A stretch of 64,000 nt of DNA, from the IMG/VR virus record IMGVR_UViG_640753020_000006, one strand, 5' to 3'. Every line of letters starts with the position of its first letter. Positions within the stretch are counted from its first letter, which is position 1. A program made the translations under genes and the position numbers. Shown piece by piece: positions 45,201 to 55,706 of the stretch. The stretch comes from a virus. The notes under the pieces were generated by a model that saw only the letters and a list, made by a program, of their open reading frames with translations, was not told the DNA's origin and did no database searches.

Positions 45201-46724
45201 CTATTCACCAGTGTTTAAATTATTATCAACATTATTATTCAATTCATTATTCAATCCTTCAGTAAATGAATCCTCTGCATTACTCAACTGTGTTTTCTCC
45301 TCAAGTATCTCACTAAAAGCTTTTTCATCATCTTCCTCGTCACTGAATTCCTTAATATATGATTTCCTCGACCTTACGTCAGCTTCAACCTCTGAAATGG
45401 CAGTCTTTTTCTTTTCATCATCATCAGAAGGGAGAGGGTAATTATGCTTGAAGATGGTTGTATACTTTATACTCAACCATTCAAAGTTAAATATGCCCTT
45501 ATAACATACTGGAGCTACTTCAATAATAAAATTGATTAATGCTAATAAGGGCCTTTCCCAGTCATTCCATTTTTCCTCACACCTAGCTATCAAATCATTG
45601 TAAAGATAAATCATAGCCTTAGCAGAGGGAATATTGTTTAAATCCGATAATTTAGGCATATCCAGTGCAAAATTCATATCCCTTTCTGTCCTGTCCAGGT
45701 AAGCTTCTATTGCATCAGAATTTCCTATATTGTATTCCATTCTTTGAACTGCAGCTTGTTTTCCACTTTCTAAGAGTTCATCTCTGGTTTTTACTGCATG
45801 GAGTGCATTAGGAGCTATAGTAAATTTATTTACATCATCTTCATCACCATCAATCACAACCTCCGAACCAAATAGTTGAAACCTCAATGCATCTGCAAAA
45901 TCAGATATTCTCCTATTATATTGGTTCTGGGCATCTTCTAGTTCAGTAACATCACTTTCACCAAAGGAATCATTGAGTTCTCCACCATTTTTAATAAGCC
46001 AACAGGGTATAGCAGTAAATCCAGTGTCAATATCTATTGTAAGTCCTTCCTGCAGGTCTGTATTTTTATAGGTTTCTTTCTTATACCACGCCTGCCTTTC
46101 TTTTGAATTTTCATTGACTTTATAGTAATAAGTATGAAGGTAGTAAATCTTATCTGCATCAGCTTCCCTGTATACATTAAGTTCATCCTCTTCAAAGAAC
46201 ACAACCTTTAATAAAACTCCATTCTTTTCTTTATAATAAAAATTTTCTATAGTTTCATACTTAAGTACTAAAGGTTGTCCAGGGTTGGCTTCTGCTCTAA
46301 GCAGTACCCTCTTTTTTACGGTAGATTCTAAAAAAGCCTTTCTTGTATTATTCCAAAAATTATTACTTTCAAAAATATCCTCTACAAATTTTCTTAAATC
46401 CTCACACTTATCCTTGTCTTTAAAGTCATCTGGTTTAAATATTAGGGTAGGCTCCTTCCCAAACATCCACCTTGCCTGTTTTTTAAGAAGAGGCTTAACC
46501 TTATTTCTTATATCTTGAGTAGGTTTATAATCGCAATTATCATCTGTCGGCCAGTTCTGACCATATAATATAGGATCATTCTTAGCTCTCTCAAAATCTA
46601 TAGATTTTCCTTTATAAAAGATATAATCTCTTCTTACTTTCCTTCTCTCTTCTATTTCATTGTCGGGCAGATTTAGCAAAGTATCTCTTATTGTCCTTGC
46701 TTGTCTTTCTTCGCTGCTTTCCAC
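45201..46724 (-). CDS. Portal protein, SPP1 gp6-like
   Basis: 507 aa after terL; GESD...L.D.Q..YN, SAKAM...Y..L. Confidence 0.88.
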   Translation of the reverse strand: MESSEERQARTIRDTLLNLPDNEIEERRKVRRDYIFYKGKSIDFERAKNDPILYGQNWPTDDNCDYKPTQDIRNKVKPLLKKQARWMFGKEPTLIFKPDDFKDKDKCEDLRKFVEDIFESNNFWNNTRKAFLESTVKKRVLLRAEANPGQPLVLKYETIENFYYKEKNGVLLKVVFFEEDELNVYREADADKIYYLHTYYYKVNENSKERQAWYKKETYKNTDLQEGLTIDIDTGFTAIPCWLIKNGGELNDSFGESDVTELEDAQNQYNRRISDFADALRFQLFGSEVVIDGDEDDVNKFTIAPNALHAVKTRDELLESGKQAAVQRMEYNIGNSDAIEAYLDRTERDMNFALDMPKLSDLNNIPSAKAMIYLYNDLIARCEEKWNDWERPLLALINFIIEVAPVCYKGIFNFEWLSIKYTTIFKHNYPLPSDDDEKKKTAISEVEADVRSRKSYIKEFSDEEDDEKAFSEILEEKTQLSNAEDSFTEGLNNELNNNVDNNLNTGE

Positions 46725-48076
46725 TAAAATACCGAACCTCCTTTCCTATTGTAAGGGTCTGTGGATGTATTTTTAATAACACCTTTTCCTTTTTCATAAA
46801 CACTATTTGCATATTTTTGTTCTTTAATATCAGCAACCTCATATCCATCAAGGCCATACCAAATAGCACTAAAAGTATGAGGATCTATGTTAAATTCATC
46901 TTCTATAATTTCACCATTTTTATCTACTGCATAAGTCAAATCCTTTAATTCATCTACGGTATTAATACAATCCTCTGAACATATAATTTTCTTGAATCTT
47001 TTAACCTTCTTGGTATTCTGCAGCCTTGACCCTGGAAACTTTTTAGCTCTTCTAATGTTGAACCCTTGTTGATTGAAATACTTGATTGTTTTAGGTTCTG
47101 CACCATCAGCACGAATAAGTTCTTGAGTACTTTTAAATTCAGCTATTTCAATGGCAGTTCTATCGTCTGTCATTTGATTTTTGTAATATTCCCAATAGAT
47201 ATAAAGTATCTTTTCTTTATCATCTACAGCTAGCCTTAATAGAGCATTATAAGAATCTTCAAAACCAAAGTCGAACCCAACTCTTTTAATCGGATTCTTT
47301 ATATTCCCTATAGCTTGAAGCACCTCATAGTGTGGCCTAGCTTCAAACTGAGGGAGTACCCTCCTACCATTTATACCGAATCTGCCTTTTCTGGCTATCC
47401 TATATAAATCAATATCATAAGTTTTTAATTCTTCTAACTGCTCTATATAACTTTTGGGCAAAAATAAATTATCATCTGCCAGTGAGTGATGATAATAAGT
47501 GTTATTTCTTACAACTATTCTTTTTTTGTAAAGCTCCTCATCATCAAGTATGAATGTTTTTTTCTTTTCATTTTTAAAGAAGTGCTTGTATGTCCAGTTA
47601 TCCTTACTTACAGGATTAGTTGAAAGTATCATATGCAATGATAAGCTTGGATGTCTTAAACGTCCTAAAAGTTCTTTGAATCCTTCATATTTCACCTCTG
47701 AACATTCCTCAATCCATACTATAGAAACATTGTTTATAGACTTTAGCTTTGAAGGTTTATCCATACCTTTAAATATTATTTTGGAGCCATTAGGAAACCT
47801 AACCTGCATTGGTGAAGCTGTAAATTTAATTCTAGTGTCAAGTCCCATGTCTATTACTATTTCCTCTAAAAGTGAATAGCAGCTATCCCTTATAGTATCA
47901 AATACTTCTCTAACTACTAAGGCAGTTCTTTTTTCCTGTAATAATTTAAGGATTAGCTTTAAGGCCACATGATAACTCTTGGAACTTCCATACCCTCCAA
48001 CTAAAAAGTAGAATTTATGGTCCCAATCAAAAATAAAATCTTCAAAACTGGGATTTACCTCTTTTTCTATAAGCAT
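46724..48076 (-). CDS. Terminase large subunit, PBSX family
   Basis: [28 protein letters not shown]. Confidence 0.95.
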
Positions 48077-48930
48077 TATTCATCACTTTTTCTTTTTATC
48101 ATTATTTCTATAGGTTTGTTATCGTCAGGACTTTTAACCTTCTCAATCTCAGCTCTAAGTTTTTCCATCCTCAACCTCTGTTCTTCAGTAGCCATATCCA
48201 TATGCTTTGACAGCCAGTCAAGGGCTTTCATGGCATCATGGAGTTTTATACTTACGCCATCCTTGCCCTGCTTAACTTCACTTATTAAGGAGCCATCTAC
48301 CTCACTGGATTCTTTGAAATCAACATAACTGTATTGATATTCTATTTTATTGCCTTCATTATCCAATAGAGGCTCTCCTGTTTTTTTATCTCTTATAGTC
48401 ATAGTTTTTTGTCCAAATGAAACATAGTCGGTCATATTACTAAAAGCTATATCCATATACTTCTGGAATATATCATCTGGACTTAGCATTGCTCTGTTAA
48501 GTTTGCCTTGTTTTAACTTTTGTATTTCTTCTTTTATACAAGCATTTACAAGCAATCGAGGTCCATTGGTATTAGCTGTTATATAATCACATCCATATGC
48601 TTTCTGATAGGCTTTAGTGGCATTAAATCGCTTGGAATAATAAATACAAAAAAGCCTTTGTTTATCAGTAAGTTCAGGATTATTTAATACCTCCTCAACT
48701 TCCTCAAACATAGGCTCAACTTTCTTCTCTGCAACTTCTTTTTTGGTTGCAACCTTTTTATTTTGGTTTTTTGTTTTGGTTGCAACCTTTTTCCATGGTT
48801 GCCCATTATCTTTATCTCTTTTAGCCCAACTTTTTATGGTTCCCTGGCTTATATTAAATTTATCTGCCAGCTGCTTAAAAGTATGCTTTCCAGTTTCATA
48901 CTCTTTTCTTACGACTTCCTTATCTGCCAT
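48076..48930 (-). CDS. Terminase small subunit with N-terminal HTH
   Basis: [10 protein letters not shown]...[28 protein letters not shown]. Confidence 0.92.
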
Positions 48931-49586: not shown

Positions 49587-49778
49587 ATGAAATCTTACTC
49601 ATCAAGGGAAGTAATCAAGATACTTGAATCACATGGATGGTATTTAAAAAGAGTTGTTGGCGACCATCACCAATATACAGACGGTCACAAACTAGCAACA
49701 GTAAGGCATCCAGTTAAAGACTTAGGAATTAAAAACATAAAGAGTATTGAAAAGCAAACAGGGATTAAATTTTCTTAA
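49587..49778 (+). CDS. hicA: HicA family toxin (RNase)
   Basis: SSREVIK.LE..GW...R..GDH.QY, HP.KDL. Confidence 0.92.
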   Translation: MKSYSSREVIKILESHGWYLKRVVGDHHQYTDGHKLATVRHPVKDLGIKNIKSIEKQTGIKFS

Positions 49779-49832
49779 TCCCTCCCTTTTCCCTTGAAAG
49801 TTTAATATATAAAATTTCCATAGGAGGTTGCC

Positions 49833-50237
49833 ATGAAAAAAGATATTTATATTTATCCATCTATAATAACTCAATACAAAGATAATGTAGGTATTACATT
49901 TCCTGATTTACCAGGTTGTGTATCTAATGCACGTACTATAGATGAAGCTATCAAAAATGCTAAAGAAGTTTTAGCTCTGCACTTATTCGGTATGGAGGAA
50001 GATGATATAGAAATCCCTTCTCCTTCACCAATCAATAAAATTAAGCTTGATAAGAATGAAATACTTTTATTGGTTGATGTTTATATGCCACTATATCGTG
50101 AAGCCATACAAAATACTTCTGTTAAAACAACTGTTACTATGCCACAATGGTTAAAATCTTTAGCTGAAAAGAATAATATTAACTTCTCTCAAGTCATACA
50201 GACTGCAATTAAAGAGAAACTTAATATTAATAGTTGA
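49833..50237 (+). CDS. hicB: HicB family antitoxin
   Basis: YP.I, .TFPDLPGC.S, EA...AKE.L.L.L, C-terminal RHH (T.T.P.WL...A....INFSQ). Confidence 0.93.
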   Translation: MKKDIYIYPSIITQYKDNVGITFPDLPGCVSNARTIDEAIKNAKEVLALHLFGMEEDDIEIPSPSPINKIKLDKNEILLLVDVYMPLYREAIQNTSVKTTVTMPQWLKSLAEKNNINFSQVIQTAIKEKLNINS

Positions 50238-50282
50238 ATTTAAGAGATGTGTAAAAACCTACGCATCTCTTTTCAATAAATC

Positions 50283-50462
50283 AAAAGTAAGCACCCAGGT
50301 GACGAGTACTTACTTCTGATAATATTGTTAATCATTATCCAAAAGGAGATTAATTTAACATATAAACTTCTGTCAGTTGCATTTGAGTTTAACGTGCCCC
50401 GCAACTATAAGGCACTGGCTTAAACGCGCATAAGTGGGAACTTAATTCATAAGCCATTCACA
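50283..50462 (-). ncRNA. Putative small RNA copy 1 with H-type pseudoknot (50375-50416)
   Basis: TATAAT 50469-50474, pseudoknot, terminator 50283-50314; paralogous to copy 2. Confidence 0.65.
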
Positions 50463-50527
50463 ATACTTATTATACATAGTATTTGTTACAATCCAATGTC
50501 CTATGTAATAACTATTTGTAAATAATA

Positions 50528-50719
50528 CAAAAATAAGCACCCTAAATAACGAGTGCCTACTTTTATAATATTATTTTTTAAGGATGCGATTTTGATATAT
50601 CAACTCGTGGCAGTTGCATTTTGGTTTTAAGTGCCCTGCAACCACAGACACTATTTTAAATTTACATTTGGGGCATTGCTCACAATCTATTTAATACTAA
50701 AGTTTATTTACTAAAGACA
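50528..50719 (-). ncRNA. Putative small RNA copy 2 with H-type pseudoknot (50612-50652)
   Basis: TATAAT 50726-50731, pseudoknot, terminator 50528-50561. Confidence 0.65.
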
Positions 50720-50798
50720 CTTATAATTATAGGTAGTATTTGTTACAACTTAATGGCATAATGATTAACTATTTGTGAACAGGTTTTATTATTCTATG

Positions 50799-50828
50799 AA
50801 AATAAGCACCAGTTTCCTAGTGCCTACC
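50799..50828 (-). terminator. Intrinsic terminator of the same family
   Basis: GGTAGGCACT-aggaaact-GGTGCTTATTTT. Confidence 0.7.
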
Positions 50829-50914
50829 TCTGACATACACATATATAGTTTTATTTTATTTGCGGTTTCCCGCATTGGTAGCTATACTTTAGGCTATAGC
50901 CAAACCTGTATAAT

Positions 50915-51211
50915 TTAAGAAAGAACAATTCTATACTTCGTGCCATCGTTAAAATTAAGAATTAGTTCTTTATTGCCGGAACTAACCTTTAAAACATCCT
51001 CCTCTGATATCGCAACCATGGGAGCAATAGATTCCACCCCAACATCACGCCCACACTCGAAAAGTGTAATCGTTGATTCTGCTACACCTTTACTTTTGGG
51101 TTTTCCCCAATCTTCTTCCTTGAAATCTTCTATGCAGAATACTCTCTCTATTTTATTATTATCTATGATATTACATGCTTTCTCAAAAGAAATGTCCATA
51201 TTTTCCCCCAT
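50915..51211 (-). CDS. Hypothetical protein
   Basis: RBS GAGG; ORF track. Confidence 0.6.
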   Translation of the reverse strand: MGENMDISFEKACNIIDNNKIERVFCIEDFKEEDWGKPKSKGVAESTITLFECGRDVGVESIAPMVAISEEDVLKVSSGNKELILNFNDGTKYRIVLS

Positions 51212-51317
51212 ACATCCTCTTTAATATTATCCTAATATATAGTACTATTTCCTTTGAGTAAAAGCAAGGCCCCATTTAACCCTGGAGCCAGAGGTTTATT
51301 TTAAGAGGGTATTAAAA

Positions 51318-51674
51318 TTAAAATTTAACTTTATTTTCATTTGCCAATCTTCTCGGAGTGTCCCATGTAACTACAGGAGCAACCTCTTTATTTATTACTA
51401 TATCCCCGTCAGGATTCGTTTTATATATAGACCTATTCTTTTTTACAAACGCACTATCACCTATATATTTATTTGCTTCATAGTTAACTGCCTTTACCAC
51501 CTCTCGTCTACATGTTAAGGCAACCCTATGTTCACATTTTAAATTACTAAAATTTCTTTGGATGCATTTTTCTACAGTATCTTTTTTAATATTTAATTTT
51601 CTAGCAATCTCAGGGGCTGTTAACCCATCTAAATACAAAATCTTAACTTCTTCTTTATTTAACACAGCTCTCAA
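51318..51674 (-). CDS. HTH DNA-binding protein
   Basis: K.LYLDG.T..EIA..L.I....V.KCIQRN; RBS GGAG points to TTG 51674. Confidence 0.7.
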   Translation of the reverse strand: MRAVLNKEEVKILYLDGLTAPEIARKLNIKKDTVEKCIQRNFSNLKCEHRVALTCRREVVKAVNYEANKYIGDSAFVKKNRSIYKTNPDGDIVINKEVAPVVTWDTPRRLANENKVKF

Positions 51675-51792
51675 ATCATCAGCTCCTAAAAAAGAATATA
51701 GTTCACCCAAACCATAAAAGTGGACATGTTTTATTTTTACCAAATTGAATTCTTTGAATTTCATTTATATTATATACTATTTCTTAATGTAT

Positions 51793-51853
51793 TTTGTCCC
51801 AACTTTGTCCTATTTTTGTCTCAAATTTGTCTCATTTTTGTCCTATTTTTGTC
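51793..51853 (-). repeat. Six TTTGTC repeats at 11-bp period upstream of a -10 box (late promoter candidate)
   Basis: Starts at 51793, 51804, 51815, 51826, 51837, 51848; minus-strand TATAAT at 51769-51774. Confidence 0.8.
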
Positions 51854-51894
51854 TCAAGATTTTTTAAGATTAAAAAAGGCAACAGCATTATTTT

Positions 51895-52350
51895 TCAGCT
51901 ATTACCATACACCCCTTCCCACTTAACAATATCCTCCAGTATATCTTCTCGCCACCTGTAGGCAGTACTTCTTACGCCACCATACATTTCATTTGCTATC
52001 CATCCAACACCCTTATTTAGCTTATATTTGTAAGTAATAAATTGCATAATTTCTTCTGATAGTGGAGGGACTGTCAGGACTTTCTTCAACAGAGCTGTAT
52101 TTCTTTTTAACTGCCTTATCCTGGACATATTCTTACGGAATTTTCTATTTACATATTTTAGTTCACTCTTAAGCTCCTTAATTTCTTTTGCATCTTCCTT
52201 TTCACTCGAGTGCTTTATATCCCACTGGATACTTTCCTCCTGATCCTGCAGGTCTTTACATTCCAATTCCAAAGCTTCCATCTCTTTCAAATCCCTAAAA
52301 TAGCCATACAGCTTACCTTCTGTTCTTTTAAATGTTTCTTTGTCCAACAT
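51895..52350 (-). CDS. ArpU/RinA-like late transcriptional activator
   Basis: F...E..LY.Y, I..KY......IA.......STAYRWR. Confidence 0.8.
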   Translation of the reverse strand: MLDKETFKRTEGKLYGYFRDLKEMEALELECKDLQDQEESIQWDIKHSSEKEDAKEIKELKSELKYVNRKFRKNMSRIRQLKRNTALLKKVLTVPPLSEEIMQFITYKYKLNKGVGWIANEMYGGVRSTAYRWREDILEDIVKWEGVYGNS

Positions 52351-52398
52351 ACAGTTCCCTCCCATGTACTTATTTAATTATGTCTAATTTCTAACCCC

Positions 52399-53377: not shown

Positions 53378-53596
53378 TTATTTATACAATCCTTTAGGAC
53401 TAAACTTATTTACATTGCATTCATCACAACTTTGAGCAGTACTTTTAATGATTTTCTTACTACTCCTCCAGCAGTGCAGACATTTATTTTTAATTAACTT
53501 CTTTCCACATTTTGCACAAAAGTTGCATGGCATTTTATTTTTATGGCCACAATGAGGGCATTCAAACATTGTGGAATATTTGGATTTATAAATCAT
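53378..53596 (-). CDS. Zinc-ribbon protein
   Basis: CPHC, C..C..C, C..C motifs. Confidence 0.6.
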   Translation of the reverse strand: MIYKSKYSTMFECPHCGHKNKMPCNFCAKCGKKLIKNKCLHCWRSSKKIIKSTAQSCDECNVNKFSPKGLYK

Positions 53597-54468
53597 GTTT
53601 CACCACACCTTTCTATATCTGCAATAGCTTTCAGTATGGGATATACCTGCTGTGGTACTACTGCGTTACCTAAGGCTATACTTCTGTCCACCCTATCGGA
53701 AATCCCATCATCCACTCCAAGAACTGGGGATTCGGATATCTCCCAATAAGTTCTGGATGTTTCTCTCCTATGCTTCCTGGAAGTACCTTGCCATGAGTTC
53801 CGTTCCTCTCTGACGGTGTCAACGCCCGAATAGGCTTGAAGTTTTGGGATGCTGTAGGAGTCGCATAAAAGTGTCTTACAAAATCCCTCAAATTGTTTCT
53901 TGCTGTTCTTCCTGCTTTCCTTGATGCTTCTGGAGTTCTTCCCCCTTTGTTGTCTGCTGCTGTCGGAGTAGGCAACAATGAATATCCTTTCCCTTTTGTG
54001 CGGAGCTCCAACTCTGTTTGCTCCATAGCAGCACCATCCGACACTGTACCCCATCTTGGCCAGGTCCCTGAGAATTCCTCCAAAGAACCGTCCATTTTCA
54101 CTTGATAATATCCCTGGTACATTTTCACCCAAAAACCATCTTGGCTTAAGAATGCGAATTCTCTCTGCTGTTTCCGGCCACAAGTCACGTTCATCATTAG
54201 ACGCCTTACGTTCTCCTGCAACGCTGTGAGGCTGGCATGGAAATCCTGCCGATAAAACTGTGACTTCTTGAATTCCTCTTTCTCTAACAGATTCAACTGT
54301 AATACTTCTAACATCTTTCCACCTCTCTACATCCGGCCAATGTTTTTCAAGTACCCTTGTGGGGTAATCTGCAAACTCACACTGTCCTACTGTTTTGAAT
54401 CCTGCCCATTCAGCAGCAAGATCAATTCCTCCTATTCCGGTAAACAAACTGAAATGTGTTAAATCCAT
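53593..54468 (-). CDS. C5-cytosine DNA methyltransferase, alpha subunit (lacks motif IX)
   Basis: SLF.GIGG.DLA (I), GFPCQ (IV), ENV.G (VI), PH.R.R.F (VIII), ALGNAVVP (X). Confidence 0.9.
   Translation of the reverse strand: MDLTHFSLFTGIGGIDLAAEWAGFKTVGQCEFADYPTRVLEKHWPDVERWKDVRSITVESVRERGIQEVTVLSAGFPCQPHSVAGERKASNDERDLWPETAERIRILKPRWFLGENVPGILSSENGRFFGGILRDLAKMGYSVGWCCYGANRVGAPHKRERIFIVAYSDSSRQQRGKNSRSIKESRKNSKKQFEGFCKTLLCDSYSIPKLQAYSGVDTVREERNSWQGTSRKHRRETSRTYWEISESPVLGVDDGISDRVDRSIALGNAVVPQQVYPILKAIADIERCGET
53676..54314 (-). CDS. Nested out-of-frame beta subunit of the C5 methyltransferase
   Basis: 212-aa ORF inside alpha with RBS GAGGTG; LPTPTA repeats; NP.FLEWMMGFP.GWT (motif IX-like). 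Confidence 0.75.
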   Translation of the reverse strand: MLEVLQLNLLEKEEFKKSQFYRQDFHASLTALQENVRRLMMNVTCGRKQQREFAFLSQDGFWVKMYQGYYQVKMDGSLEEFSGTWPRWGTVSDGAAMEQTELELRTKGKGYSLLPTPTAADNKGGRTPEASRKAGRTARNNLRDFVRHFYATPTASQNFKPIRALTPSERNGTHGKVLPGSIGEKHPELIGRYPNPQFLEWMMGFPIGWTEV

Positions 54469-54546
54469 ATCTACACCCCCACAACCTGCAAAACTCATCA
54501 TACCTAAAACTTTCCCTTAGTTCGTTTTCATGCTTCTTCCATTTAA

Positions 54547-54876
54547 CTAGCACAAGGTAATCTGTCCCGTCGGCCACAACCCCTTTATGACTTTATATTT
54601 TCCACGACTGCGTTGCACCTTTAGAGTTATTTTCTCCCCTAGACTAAAATCCTTCTTCATCCTGCGAATACTTTCCGTACGGTAAAATGAATCTTTGGGA
54701 AGCGTAGGTAATTTACGCTGGATGGGCAAGCCCAGTTCGCCCCCTATCACACTCACAAGAGAAGTACTGCACCCTAATTTCTTCGCCATATACTTTTTAG
54801 GCATGATTTCCCAGTTGTCTCTTACAAAGTTCAGGTTTTCTTTTGTTCTTTTGAACGCAACTGCCATTTTTATCAC
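54547..54876 (-). CDS. HTH-like protein, possibly frameshifted at the C-terminus
   Basis: MAKKLGCS.S.VS helix; AAAGGGG at 54580-54586. Confidence 0.55.
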   Translation of the reverse strand: MIKMAVAFKRTKENLNFVRDNWEIMPKKYMAKKLGCSTSLVSVIGGELGLPIQRKLPTLPKDSFYRTESIRRMKKDFSLGEKITLKVQRSRGKYKVIKGLWPTGQITLC

Positions 54877-55706
54877 CCCTCACACATTTTTAACTGCTCA
54901 TTCACCCTCGGTCTATAATTCATCAAAATCAATTCTGTTCTCACAGGGCATTTATCTCCGTCAGCCCTATTTTTTATTTGGCTGGCCGTATGATATTCGT
55001 TTCGGTACCACCCCGAATACAAATTATCTATAAGTGGATCCGGATAATAACAAACCATAGCTTTGCCTTTTATCCCTTCAAGCACTTTCCTGAGCCTTAT
55101 ATGGTCCTTCTCTTGAAATCCTCCAAAGTACATGTCCTCATGCCCAAAATACGGTGGGTCTAAAAAAAATAGTGTATCTCTGGAATCATAAAACTTTATT
55201 ACTTCTTCAAAGTCCCGACAAAGTATATTCCAGTTCTTTATTAATTCAGCCATCTTTGGGATTAACTCTGTAGCTGACATCAACTGTTTAGCTTTATTTG
55301 TTGTCTTTGAAAGACTCATTCCACTCTTGTATTTGCGTCCTCCTCCGCCGAAGCAAACCCTCATGAGGTAATAAAACCTGACTGCCGATTGGAGCTTATC
55401 CTCCGGCCATGGTTCCCATTTCCATTTCTCATACAGACTTTCCGAAAACGGAAGGGAGCTGCACTCTTTATAAAGGCTTTCTGGATTACCTTTTAGCATC
55501 ATCATGTAATTTATCAATCTGTCGTTTATGTCATTCACTACTGTCATATTCGCAGGATTTACCGTTTCTTTGTAAAAAGTAACTGCTCCGGATCCAAAGA
55601 AAACATCCGCAAATATTTTATGTCTAGGCATAAGCTCCAGGTACCGTTCTTCCTTTCCATGCTTGCCACCAATCCACTTTATGTTGGTTAAATTCTTAAG
55701 TTTCAC
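54873..55706 (-). CDS. Orphan N6-adenine DNA methyltransferase (Dam/D12-like)
   Basis: WIGGK, DVF.GSG, VND.N, FLDPPY. Confidence 0.92.
   Translation of the reverse strand: MKLKNLTNIKWIGGKHGKEERYLELMPRHKIFADVFFGSGAVTFYKETVNPANMTVVNDINDRLINYMMMLKGNPESLYKECSSLPFSESLYEKWKWEPWPEDKLQSAVRFYYLMRVCFGGGGRKYKSGMSLSKTTNKAKQLMSATELIPKMAELIKNWNILCRDFEEVIKFYDSRDTLFFLDPPYFGHEDMYFGGFQEKDHIRLRKVLEGIKGKAMVCYYPDPLIDNLYSGWYRNEYHTASQIKNRADGDKCPVRTELILMNYRPRVNEQLKMCEG

Follow-up and report, generated by a model that had tools for sequence, protein, structure and literature searches.

Bacterial ribonuclease P (RNase P) recognizes its substrates through a small set of determinants: U(−1), the G(+1):C(+72) pair, a purine at position 73 (R73), and C74-C75-A76. 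Small phage regulatory RNAs, the C4 antisense RNA of P1/P7 and the CI RNA of satellite phage P4, are matured by this enzyme. Here we describe two tandem candidate small-RNA genes on the minus strand of a Clostridium kluyveri prophage, within the 64,000-nucleotide stretch of IMG/VR record IMGVR_UViG_640753020_000006 that we analyzed (hereafter, the window). Each gene carries a compact H-type pseudoknot that ends in purine-CCA (R-CCA) or a variant of it, and similar units are scattered through the C. kluyveri chromosome and occur across its genus. We tentatively favor a reading in which they are RNA precursors cut by RNase P.

The C4 and CI RNAs resemble the new element in being small and phage- or prophage-borne; their 5′ ends are made by RNase P on an acceptor-like helix with CCA, and they act by base pairing. 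However, their helix is simple where ours is a pseudoknot, and the present family is mainly chromosomal, reaches 33 copies per genome and has no Rfam match. LhrC1-5 of Listeria and RsaE/RoxS, which are multicopy and sometimes tandem sibling C-rich small RNAs of Firmicutes, are similar in that each gene has its own promoter and terminator and that Shine-Dalgarno regions could be bound through CU- or C-rich motifs. They differ in lacking a pseudoknot-RCCA module and in having no sequence or Rfam similarity to the family, in which about a third of copies lack the CU-rich motif. ToxI and CptI are, like our element, small pseudoknotted non-coding RNAs tied to phage-host conflict, and a phage has reportedly escaped ToxIN through ToxI-like repeats. 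In contrast to the units described here, which have neither an array nor an adjacent toxin, these antitoxin RNAs are arrays of 34-40-nt repeats that lie beside a toxin gene and are processed by the toxin.

A further precedent comes from the pseudoknotted acceptor arm that plant viruses such as turnip yellow mosaic virus (TYMV) have in their tRNA-like structures, and from the engineered, GCCAC-trailed pseudoknots of Kosek et al. (2025). These share the family's order of parts: 5′ strand of stem 1 (S1), loop 1, 5′ strand of stem 2 (S2), 3′ strand of S1, no loop 2, loop 3, 3′ strand of S2, and purine-CCA. RNase P, in the published examples, depends on the RCCA and makes its cut in loop 1, immediately 5′ of helix 2 (PMC12710915). 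Kosek et al. (2025) found that an H-type pseudoknot is cut by the type A RNase P RNA of E. coli, with or without the protein, directly 5′ of helix 2 in loop 1 (PMC12710915). Cleavage by this RNA, and by type B and archaeal RNase P RNAs as well, needs an added GCCAC trailer; it is lost when C74 is replaced with G and regained when the RNase P RNA carries a compensating change (PMC12710915). With a type B RNase P RNA, the canonical site was used in the U(−1) variant, and cleavage of the A and G variants was very weak or absent (PMC12710915). The authors left open whether pseudoknots are RNase P targets in vivo (PMC12710915). Compared to these pseudoknots, the family described here is bacterial, chromosomal and multicopy. 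Its stems are longer (7 plus 6-7 pairs), its loop 1 ends in U, and its +1 base is G or A. Its CCA is internal, with ~75 nt and a terminator after it, and it has no T-arm or anticodon-arm mimic.

The pseudoknot is conserved in both stems

An initial annotation of this DNA had paired the strands of a pseudoknot in each unit, and both units contain those strands exactly as listed (Table 1). Its description of interleaved 6-7-bp stems, a loop 2 of zero length and an A-rich loop 3 also held in the family, except that the seventh pair of S1 is present in only 72 of 108 sequences. The common geometry is classical: loop 1 has 2 nt and lies over an S2 of 7 pairs, loop 2 is absent, and loop 3, A-rich and 11-13 nt long, holds an invariant AAA over S1. 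A U·G occurs at the stem junction in 102 of 108 sequences.

We compared pairing in the predicted stems with controls in which the 3′ partners were slid. In 31 C. kluyveri copies, 97.6% of cells pair, versus 35-39% with slid partners. In 116 copies (111 distinct) from 17 other genomes, 97.2% of cells pair, while the slid controls overall gave 34-40%. None of 500 shuffles reached the observed covariation, either in C. kluyveri or in the 17-genome set, and five pairs change on both sides in the latter. Covariation in both stems, which the initial annotation had named as the check on its fold, is therefore present, with compensatory changes in S1 and S2. Examples from other species are GGCUGCA with UGCAGCC and, in S1, GUCUGU with GCAGAC and AUG...CAU; in another genus, S2 pairs GGUUGUA with UAUGACU. 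The outer pair of S2, +1:+72 in tRNA numbering, is G-C in 61 sequences, A-U in 26 and G-U in 21, and is unpaired in none of the 108. Since the conserved G·U pairs would read A·C on the opposite strand, the minus strand is fixed, as had been claimed. We conclude that the pseudoknot is real. An extension of S2 through pairing of loop 1 with +73/+74 was rejected, as it shows no compensatory change and would abolish loop 1.

A conserved R-CCA follows stem 2

Overlooked at first was a conserved R-CCA right after S2. In 140 unique family copies, drawn from 18 genomes, the bases directly 3′ of S2 are R (96%), C (78%, with a pyrimidine in 94%), C (90%) and A (98%), and positions beyond R-CCA are unconserved. 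Position −1 is U in 125 copies, C in 14 and A in 1, and the 7-pair S2 begins with G or A. Low-copy genomes have almost solely GCCA or ACCA. R-CCA is present in 10 of 10 viral-contig copies among the matches listed, and distant matches (L047 and both in L048) keep N-CCA. As for the window, the upstream unit has purine-CCA after S2 while the downstream unit has the degenerate GACA, and the loop-1 pyrimidine at −1 and the paired +1:+72 are present.

Together, these features make up the acceptor-end determinants of a bacterial RNase P substrate, arranged in the strand order of the TYMV acceptor arm, and the conserved core appears to be a pseudoknotted mimic of the tRNA acceptor end. S2 matches the acceptor stem of no tRNA in the C. 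kluyveri genome, and mimicry of one particular acceptor stem was rejected for want of a fitting tRNA. Since the CCA is also internal, the element is not a full tRNA-like structure.

The units belong to a multicopy family found throughout the genus

A DNA search with the downstream unit, followed by iterated nhmmer, revealed 32 copies of the 44-nt core in the C. kluyveri DSM 555 genome (3,964,618 + 59,182 bases, 32% G+C). Many lie in tandem pairs or triplets ~220-350 nt apart, and 31 of the 32 are co-oriented with replication (judged by GC skew, with the origin near 0 and the terminus near 1.65 Mb). A promoter-like motif and a terminator accompany most copies, giving predicted RNAs of ~140-210 nt. 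At least three promoter types are present, every one containing TAACAA-N8-TAYAAT, together with four leader types that differ in their C-rich motifs (UUCCC, GCCCC and UCCUC among them). In the 140-copy set, TAACAA-N8-TAYAAT lies upstream of 118 copies, compared to 3.3% of random 150-nt windows, and a terminator follows 115, at a median of 76 nt past S2. The earlier proposal that the two units are non-coding, independently transcribed, paralogous small-RNA genes is supported, and we regard them as probable genes of this kind.

Neighboring genes are unrelated between loci and include those for chemotaxis receptors, CrcB (crcB), PadR, AraC-type and MarR-type regulators, IS110, a NACHT NTPase and an enoyl-CoA hydratase. 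Prophage paralogues aside, no neighboring gene is conserved across the C. kluyveri loci. In a covariance model search, all 19 genomes of the genus that we searched proved to carry the core, with 2-33 copies per genome. In ~40 genomes outside the genus, the search gave one copy in one other genus of the same bacterial family, two weak matches elsewhere, and otherwise none. At least nine IMG/VR viral contigs carry the element. Pattern scans of viral and genome contigs yielded at least 18 true matches after filtering with nhmmer; the loose scans alone gave mostly chance matches. The true matches listed include records of C. tyrobutyricum, C. luticellarii, C. moutaii, 'Ca. C. eludens' and Clostridium sp. 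cel8, and carrier genomes appear to include C. kluyveri, C. tyrobutyricum, C. luticellarii and C. ljungdahlii.

Since the 32 C. kluyveri copies lie in unrelated contexts and all 19 genomes of the genus carry the core, the family is not phage-specific. The two units are best described as members of a multicopy, genus-wide family of putative small RNAs, with predicted lengths of ~140-200 nt, that prophages occasionally carry as morons. The lesson for annotation is that an apparent phage specialty is a host-wide RNA family carried by phages.

Three large viral contigs carry the pseudoknot without promoter boxes: L124 (659-702, minus strand), L170 (1586-1629, plus strand) and L093 (813-854, plus strand). 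In two of these a tRNA gene lies nearby on the same strand: in L124, tRNA-Tyr follows the element at ~300 nt, and in L093, tRNA-Asn precedes it by 140 nt. An open reading frame (ORF) of 14-15 codons ending in ...V-A-G-H-V-K-stop overlaps the pseudoknot in all three. A coding reading of this ORF was rejected, as it is not kept in bacterial copies.

The initial annotation had recognized no named RNA family, and we likewise found no Rfam match at gathering score in the whole window. At E values up to 10, on the correct strand, positions 49800-51300 gave nothing relevant, with preQ1-I/II/III, SAM-II/V, fluoride, guanidine-III, C4 and RsaE among the models covered; weak matches to STnc560 and snoRNA models were dismissed as noise. 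A blastn comparison of the units with a phage collection gave no match. In the literature we found neither the core sequence nor a description of the family, a 2011 list of predicted Clostridium small RNAs being outside the comparison. The element appears to be an undescribed, abundant and structured small-RNA family. At up to 33 genes per genome, it is unannotated in industrially relevant clostridia, and the conservation of its promoter boxes implies that the genes share a regulator.

RNase P may mature the family

Since the pseudoknot ends in R-CCA like a tRNA acceptor end, an RNase P site is favored over a phage toxin decoy. Our best reading, offered tentatively, is that the units encode small-RNA precursors matured by RNase P. 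Each unit would be transcribed from its own, probably factor-dependent promoter. The pseudoknot would then fold with the 7-pair S2 serving as acceptor stem, stacked on S1, and type A RNase P would dock on the RCCA and cut loop 1 between the U and the first base of S2. The predicted cuts fall between 50644 and 50643 in the upstream unit and after 50407 in the downstream unit. The 5′ product would be a leader piece. The 3′ product, of ~105-125 nt (family median 113 nt), would begin with the S2 hairpin and hold the RCCA, often a CU-rich, anti-Shine-Dalgarno-like stretch, and the terminator. This product, and perhaps the leader piece with its C-rich motif, may act as a base-pairing regulator. What we observed directly is the family membership, copy number and distribution, the pseudoknot and the conserved RCCA; transcript starts and ends, RNase P cleavage and any regulatory target are inferences.

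The C. kluyveri RNase P RNA is type A (RF00010, 316 bits); a type B RNA was rejected, as the type B model scored below threshold. All tRNA genes that ARAGORN found in this genome encode CCA. Should the reading be right, the family would represent a new way of maturing bacterial small RNAs, in which a pseudoknot-RCCA module governs maturation and possibly competition with pre-tRNAs for RNase P. Its precursors would have been borrowed by prophages, and by large phages beside their tRNA genes. More doubtfully, the family might constitute the first natural bacterial pseudoknotted tRNA-acceptor mimics cleaved by RNase P in vivo, with up to 33 precursors per genome.

Several observations weigh against cleavage by RNase P. 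A perfect NCCA is missing in 29% of copies, and the CCA is followed by ~75 nt and a terminator instead of being 3′-terminal. S1 and S2 together form 13-14 stacked pairs, versus 12 in the tRNA acceptor/T arm, and the element has no T-loop mimic. Since the copies are paralogues, the conservation counts are not independent, and the percentages make the independent evidence look stronger than it is. Another protein, or contact with another RNA, could also account for the conserved RCCA. Because of its GACA, its 3-nt loop 1 and the G·U at the junction end of S2, the downstream unit should be a poorer RNase P substrate, with weakened docking. The C. kluyveri genome has no copy close to a tRNA gene. 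In favor of expression, the units are covered by contigs assembled in three RNA-seq studies, but these contigs carry no strand, 5′-end or processing information, and their ends coincide with repeat borders. Finally, only 73 of 115 copies have a strict CU-rich motif in the interval from the RCCA to the terminator, and in only 29 of those 73 is it predicted to be unpaired, so the idea that the product pairs with Shine-Dalgarno sequences is weak.

The strongest competing explanation, though we hold it to be rather unlikely, is that the units are ordinary trans-acting, base-pairing small RNAs. Their C- and CU-rich motifs would pair with Shine-Dalgarno regions, perhaps with Hfq, and the pseudoknot would be only a stability or chaperone-binding module that RNase P leaves uncut. 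The promoter-like motif and terminator of each copy, the unrelated gene contexts and the C-rich leader motifs (UUCCC, GCCCC, UCCUC) all fit this explanation, as do the CU-rich motif past the pseudoknot, which both window units have, the hfq gene in the C. kluyveri genome, and the existence in Firmicutes of multicopy sibling C-rich RNAs such as LhrC and RsaE. However, the features it leaves unexplained (purine-CCA, U at −1 and an S2 of exactly 7 pairs) are the most conserved ones. In addition, the presumed seed motifs are variable and a third of copies lack them, and viral copies have neither the promoter motif nor the CU-rich tail.

The tRNA-end mimic could instead be a decoy or sponge that titrates a factor recognizing acceptor ends, rather than a processing site. 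Candidates for that factor are RNase P itself, the CCA-adding enzyme, or a toxin that alters or cleaves the acceptor end, for example a nucleotidyltransferase of the MenT/AbiEii type. No surviving reading is closer to the decoy idea put forward initially; we consider this one improbable. The acceptor-end features (R-CCA, U at −1 and the +1:+72 pair), the high copy number, the presence on prophages and viral contigs, and the HicB genes beside a copy in three species (that of the window, plus those of L415 and L418) are all compatible with a sponge. Against this, no conserved partner gene lies beside the copies, and most copies are chromosomal, for which housekeeping or regulation fits better than counter-defense. 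Only one of the four hicA genes in the C. kluyveri genome adjoins a copy, and HicA is not known to read acceptor ends. Shared moron insertion spots fit this pattern of HicB adjacency better than functional pairing does.

We also considered two other roles: a pseudoknot of the preQ1 or SAM-II kind that senses a small molecule from within a small RNA, and an RNA of the late operon that serves as a leader or in antitermination upstream of the terminase genes, resembling lambda 6S or HK022 put. The A-rich loop 3, the conserved U·G at the stem junction and the promoter-short RNA-terminator layout, which resembles late leaders, speak for such an RNA. So does the position of a copy upstream of a small-terminase gene or fragment at five loci (the window, two duplicate prophages and two remnants). 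Nevertheless, this explanation is very unlikely. No riboswitch family matched even at E values up to 10, loop 2 is absent, and the only conserved unpaired bases are the AAA of loop 3. The spacer before the terminator varies and has no evident alternative pairing, and in the window an opposite-strand hicAB lies between the units and the terminase genes. Since the downstream gene is convergent at about half of loci, the element is not a leader of that gene.

Least credible of all, and by now largely refuted, is the original suggestion that the units are phage-encoded decoys that imitate ToxI or CptI and neutralize a host endoribonuclease toxin: the compact pseudoknot is of similar size, both units lie inside a prophage and the ToxIN escape offers a parallel, but there is no tandem array of 34-40-nt units, no toxin gene lies behind the units, and the family is chromosomal and genus-wide. 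Each unit has a promoter motif and a terminator to itself, and the two are spaced 236-257 nt apart; this 236-257-nt unit is itself the sole repeat at 49800-51300, where Tandem Repeats Finder reported nothing. The gene downstream of the units is a convergent hicB rather than toxN, cptN or tenpN. A search of the C. kluyveri genome for ToxN (PF13958) gave no match, although control genomes were silent too and CptN/TenpN models were not searched.

Two further proposals failed. A coding reading of the units was rejected, as their short ORFs are not conserved among paralogues and just 3 of 21 loci have an antisense ORF. A guide-RNA reading, with a variable leader and a scaffold, was rejected because the leaders form four conserved subfamilies and are not hypervariable.

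Organization of the two units and their prophage setting

The two units occupy 50776-50526 (upstream) and 50519-50283 (downstream) on the minus strand, are 78% identical along their whole length, and contain all parts of the layout first described: ACAAATAGT, TTGTAACAAATACTA, TATAAT, a leader, the H-type pseudoknot, a CU-rich spacer and an intrinsic terminator (Table 1). The spacing of the boxes had been misread. Their starts are 28 nt apart in both units, and the 34 bp originally given is the spacing of two ACAAATA repeats. About half of the 32 genomic copies have the ACAAATAGT box 28 nt upstream of the second box. The leader type of the upstream unit is also found in copies at genome positions 2566110, 557956, 3495307 and 3580646.

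A canonical −35 hexamer is absent from both units, and a simple sigma-70 scan calls no promoter there. The guess that transcription depends on an activator is reasonable given this absence and the conserved upstream boxes. On inspection, neither a Rex box nor a sporulation-sigma site fit the promoter boxes.

Table 1. Positions in the window of the parts of both small-RNA units and of neighboring prophage genes
Feature	Position	Strand	Sequence or remark
Upstream unit: upstream box	50776-50768	−	ACAAATAGT, read in sequence
Upstream unit: promoter-like core	50748-50726	−	TTGTAACAAATACTA 50748-50734, TATAAT 50731-50726; contains family motif TAACAA-N8-TAYAAT
Upstream unit: leader	50719-50653	−	~67 nt, with C-rich GCCCC; start inferred ~7 nt past the −10 hexamer
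Upstream unit: H-type pseudoknot	50652-50612	−	Sequence and covariation in both stems
Upstream unit: S1	50652-50646 : 50636-50630	−	AGUGUCU : GGGCACU
Upstream unit: loop 1	50645-50644	−	GU
Upstream unit: S2	50643-50637 : 50618-50612	−	GGUUGCA : UGCAACU
Upstream unit: loop 3	50629-50619	−	11 nt
Upstream unit: GCCA	50611-50608	−	Directly 3′ of S2; discriminator-like purine plus CCA
Upstream unit: spacer	50607-50568	−	Small hairpin; CU-rich UCCUU 50584-50580
Upstream unit: intrinsic terminator	50567-50526	−	17-pair stem and T run
Downstream unit: upstream box	50519-50511	−	ACAAATAGT
Downstream unit: promoter-like core	50491-50469	−	TTGTAACAAATACTA 50491-50477, TATAAT 50474-50469
Downstream unit: leader	50462-50416	−	~46 nt; hairpin and UUCCC motif
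Downstream unit: H-type pseudoknot	50415-50375	−	
Downstream unit: S1	50415-50410 : 50399-50394	−	GUGCCU : GGGCAC
Downstream unit: loop 1	50409-50407	−	UAU
Downstream unit: S2	50406-50400 : 50381-50375	−	AGUUGCG : UGCAACU
Downstream unit: loop 3	50393-50382	−	12 nt
Downstream unit: GACA	50374-50371	−	After S2; degenerate RCCA, common to sister copies at genome positions 57593 and 2961282
Downstream unit: spacer	50370-50318	−	Hairpin loop presents CUCCUU 50348-50343 (predicted fold of the 3′ product)
Downstream unit: intrinsic terminator	50317-50283	−	17-pair stem, then UUUUGAUUU
hicAB module: HicA (toxin, 63 aa) and HicB (antitoxin, 134 aa)	49587-50237	+	Convergent with the downstream unit
Regulator-like gene	51318-51764		GerE/sigma-70 region 4-like helix-turn-helix
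Regulator-like gene	51895-52365		phrog_36
Small terminase gene	48076-48930		
Large terminase gene	46724-48076		

The prophage spans ~17.8 to 63.8 kb of the window on the minus strand, and the units sit between late regulator-like genes (51318-52365) and the terminase genes (46724-48930). In the manner of morons, the promoter-to-terminator units are set between phage operons, beside hicAB.

A terminator at 50840-50800 on the minus strand, behind a 98-aa gene (50915-51211), is closely like the terminators of both units, and the repeated module may therefore begin with a terminator. The prophage also encodes two DNA methyltransferases (53593-54501 and 54873-55706, both on the minus strand), of the C5-cytosine type and the D12-class N6-adenine type. 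Elsewhere in the C. kluyveri chromosome, two apparently identical prophage segments lie at ~1.97 Mb and 2.04 Mb (L062), separated by 68,333 bases. One pseudoknot unit is present in each, along with the 98-, 148- and 156-aa genes of the window prophage and, downstream, a 660-aa NACHT/SNaCT5 STAND NTPase.

Minor observations concern individual chromosomal copies. The divergent copy at 3025258, whose S1 is the compensated AUG...CAU, is convergent with an IS110-family transposase gene (3023817-3024995; L068). The copy at 303995 (L059) lies between a nickel-insertion (LarC-like) gene and crcB, on the same strand. Clusters of 3-5 DnaA-box-like TTATCCACA motifs occur 180-390 nt from a pseudoknot unit at 2565926-2565946, 2597843-2597874, 2945198-2945218 and 3494888-3494930 of the C. 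kluyveri chromosome. These represent four of the eight such clusters outside the dnaA/origin region, and the repeated DNA seems to extend beyond the terminator and take in the TTATCCACA clusters.

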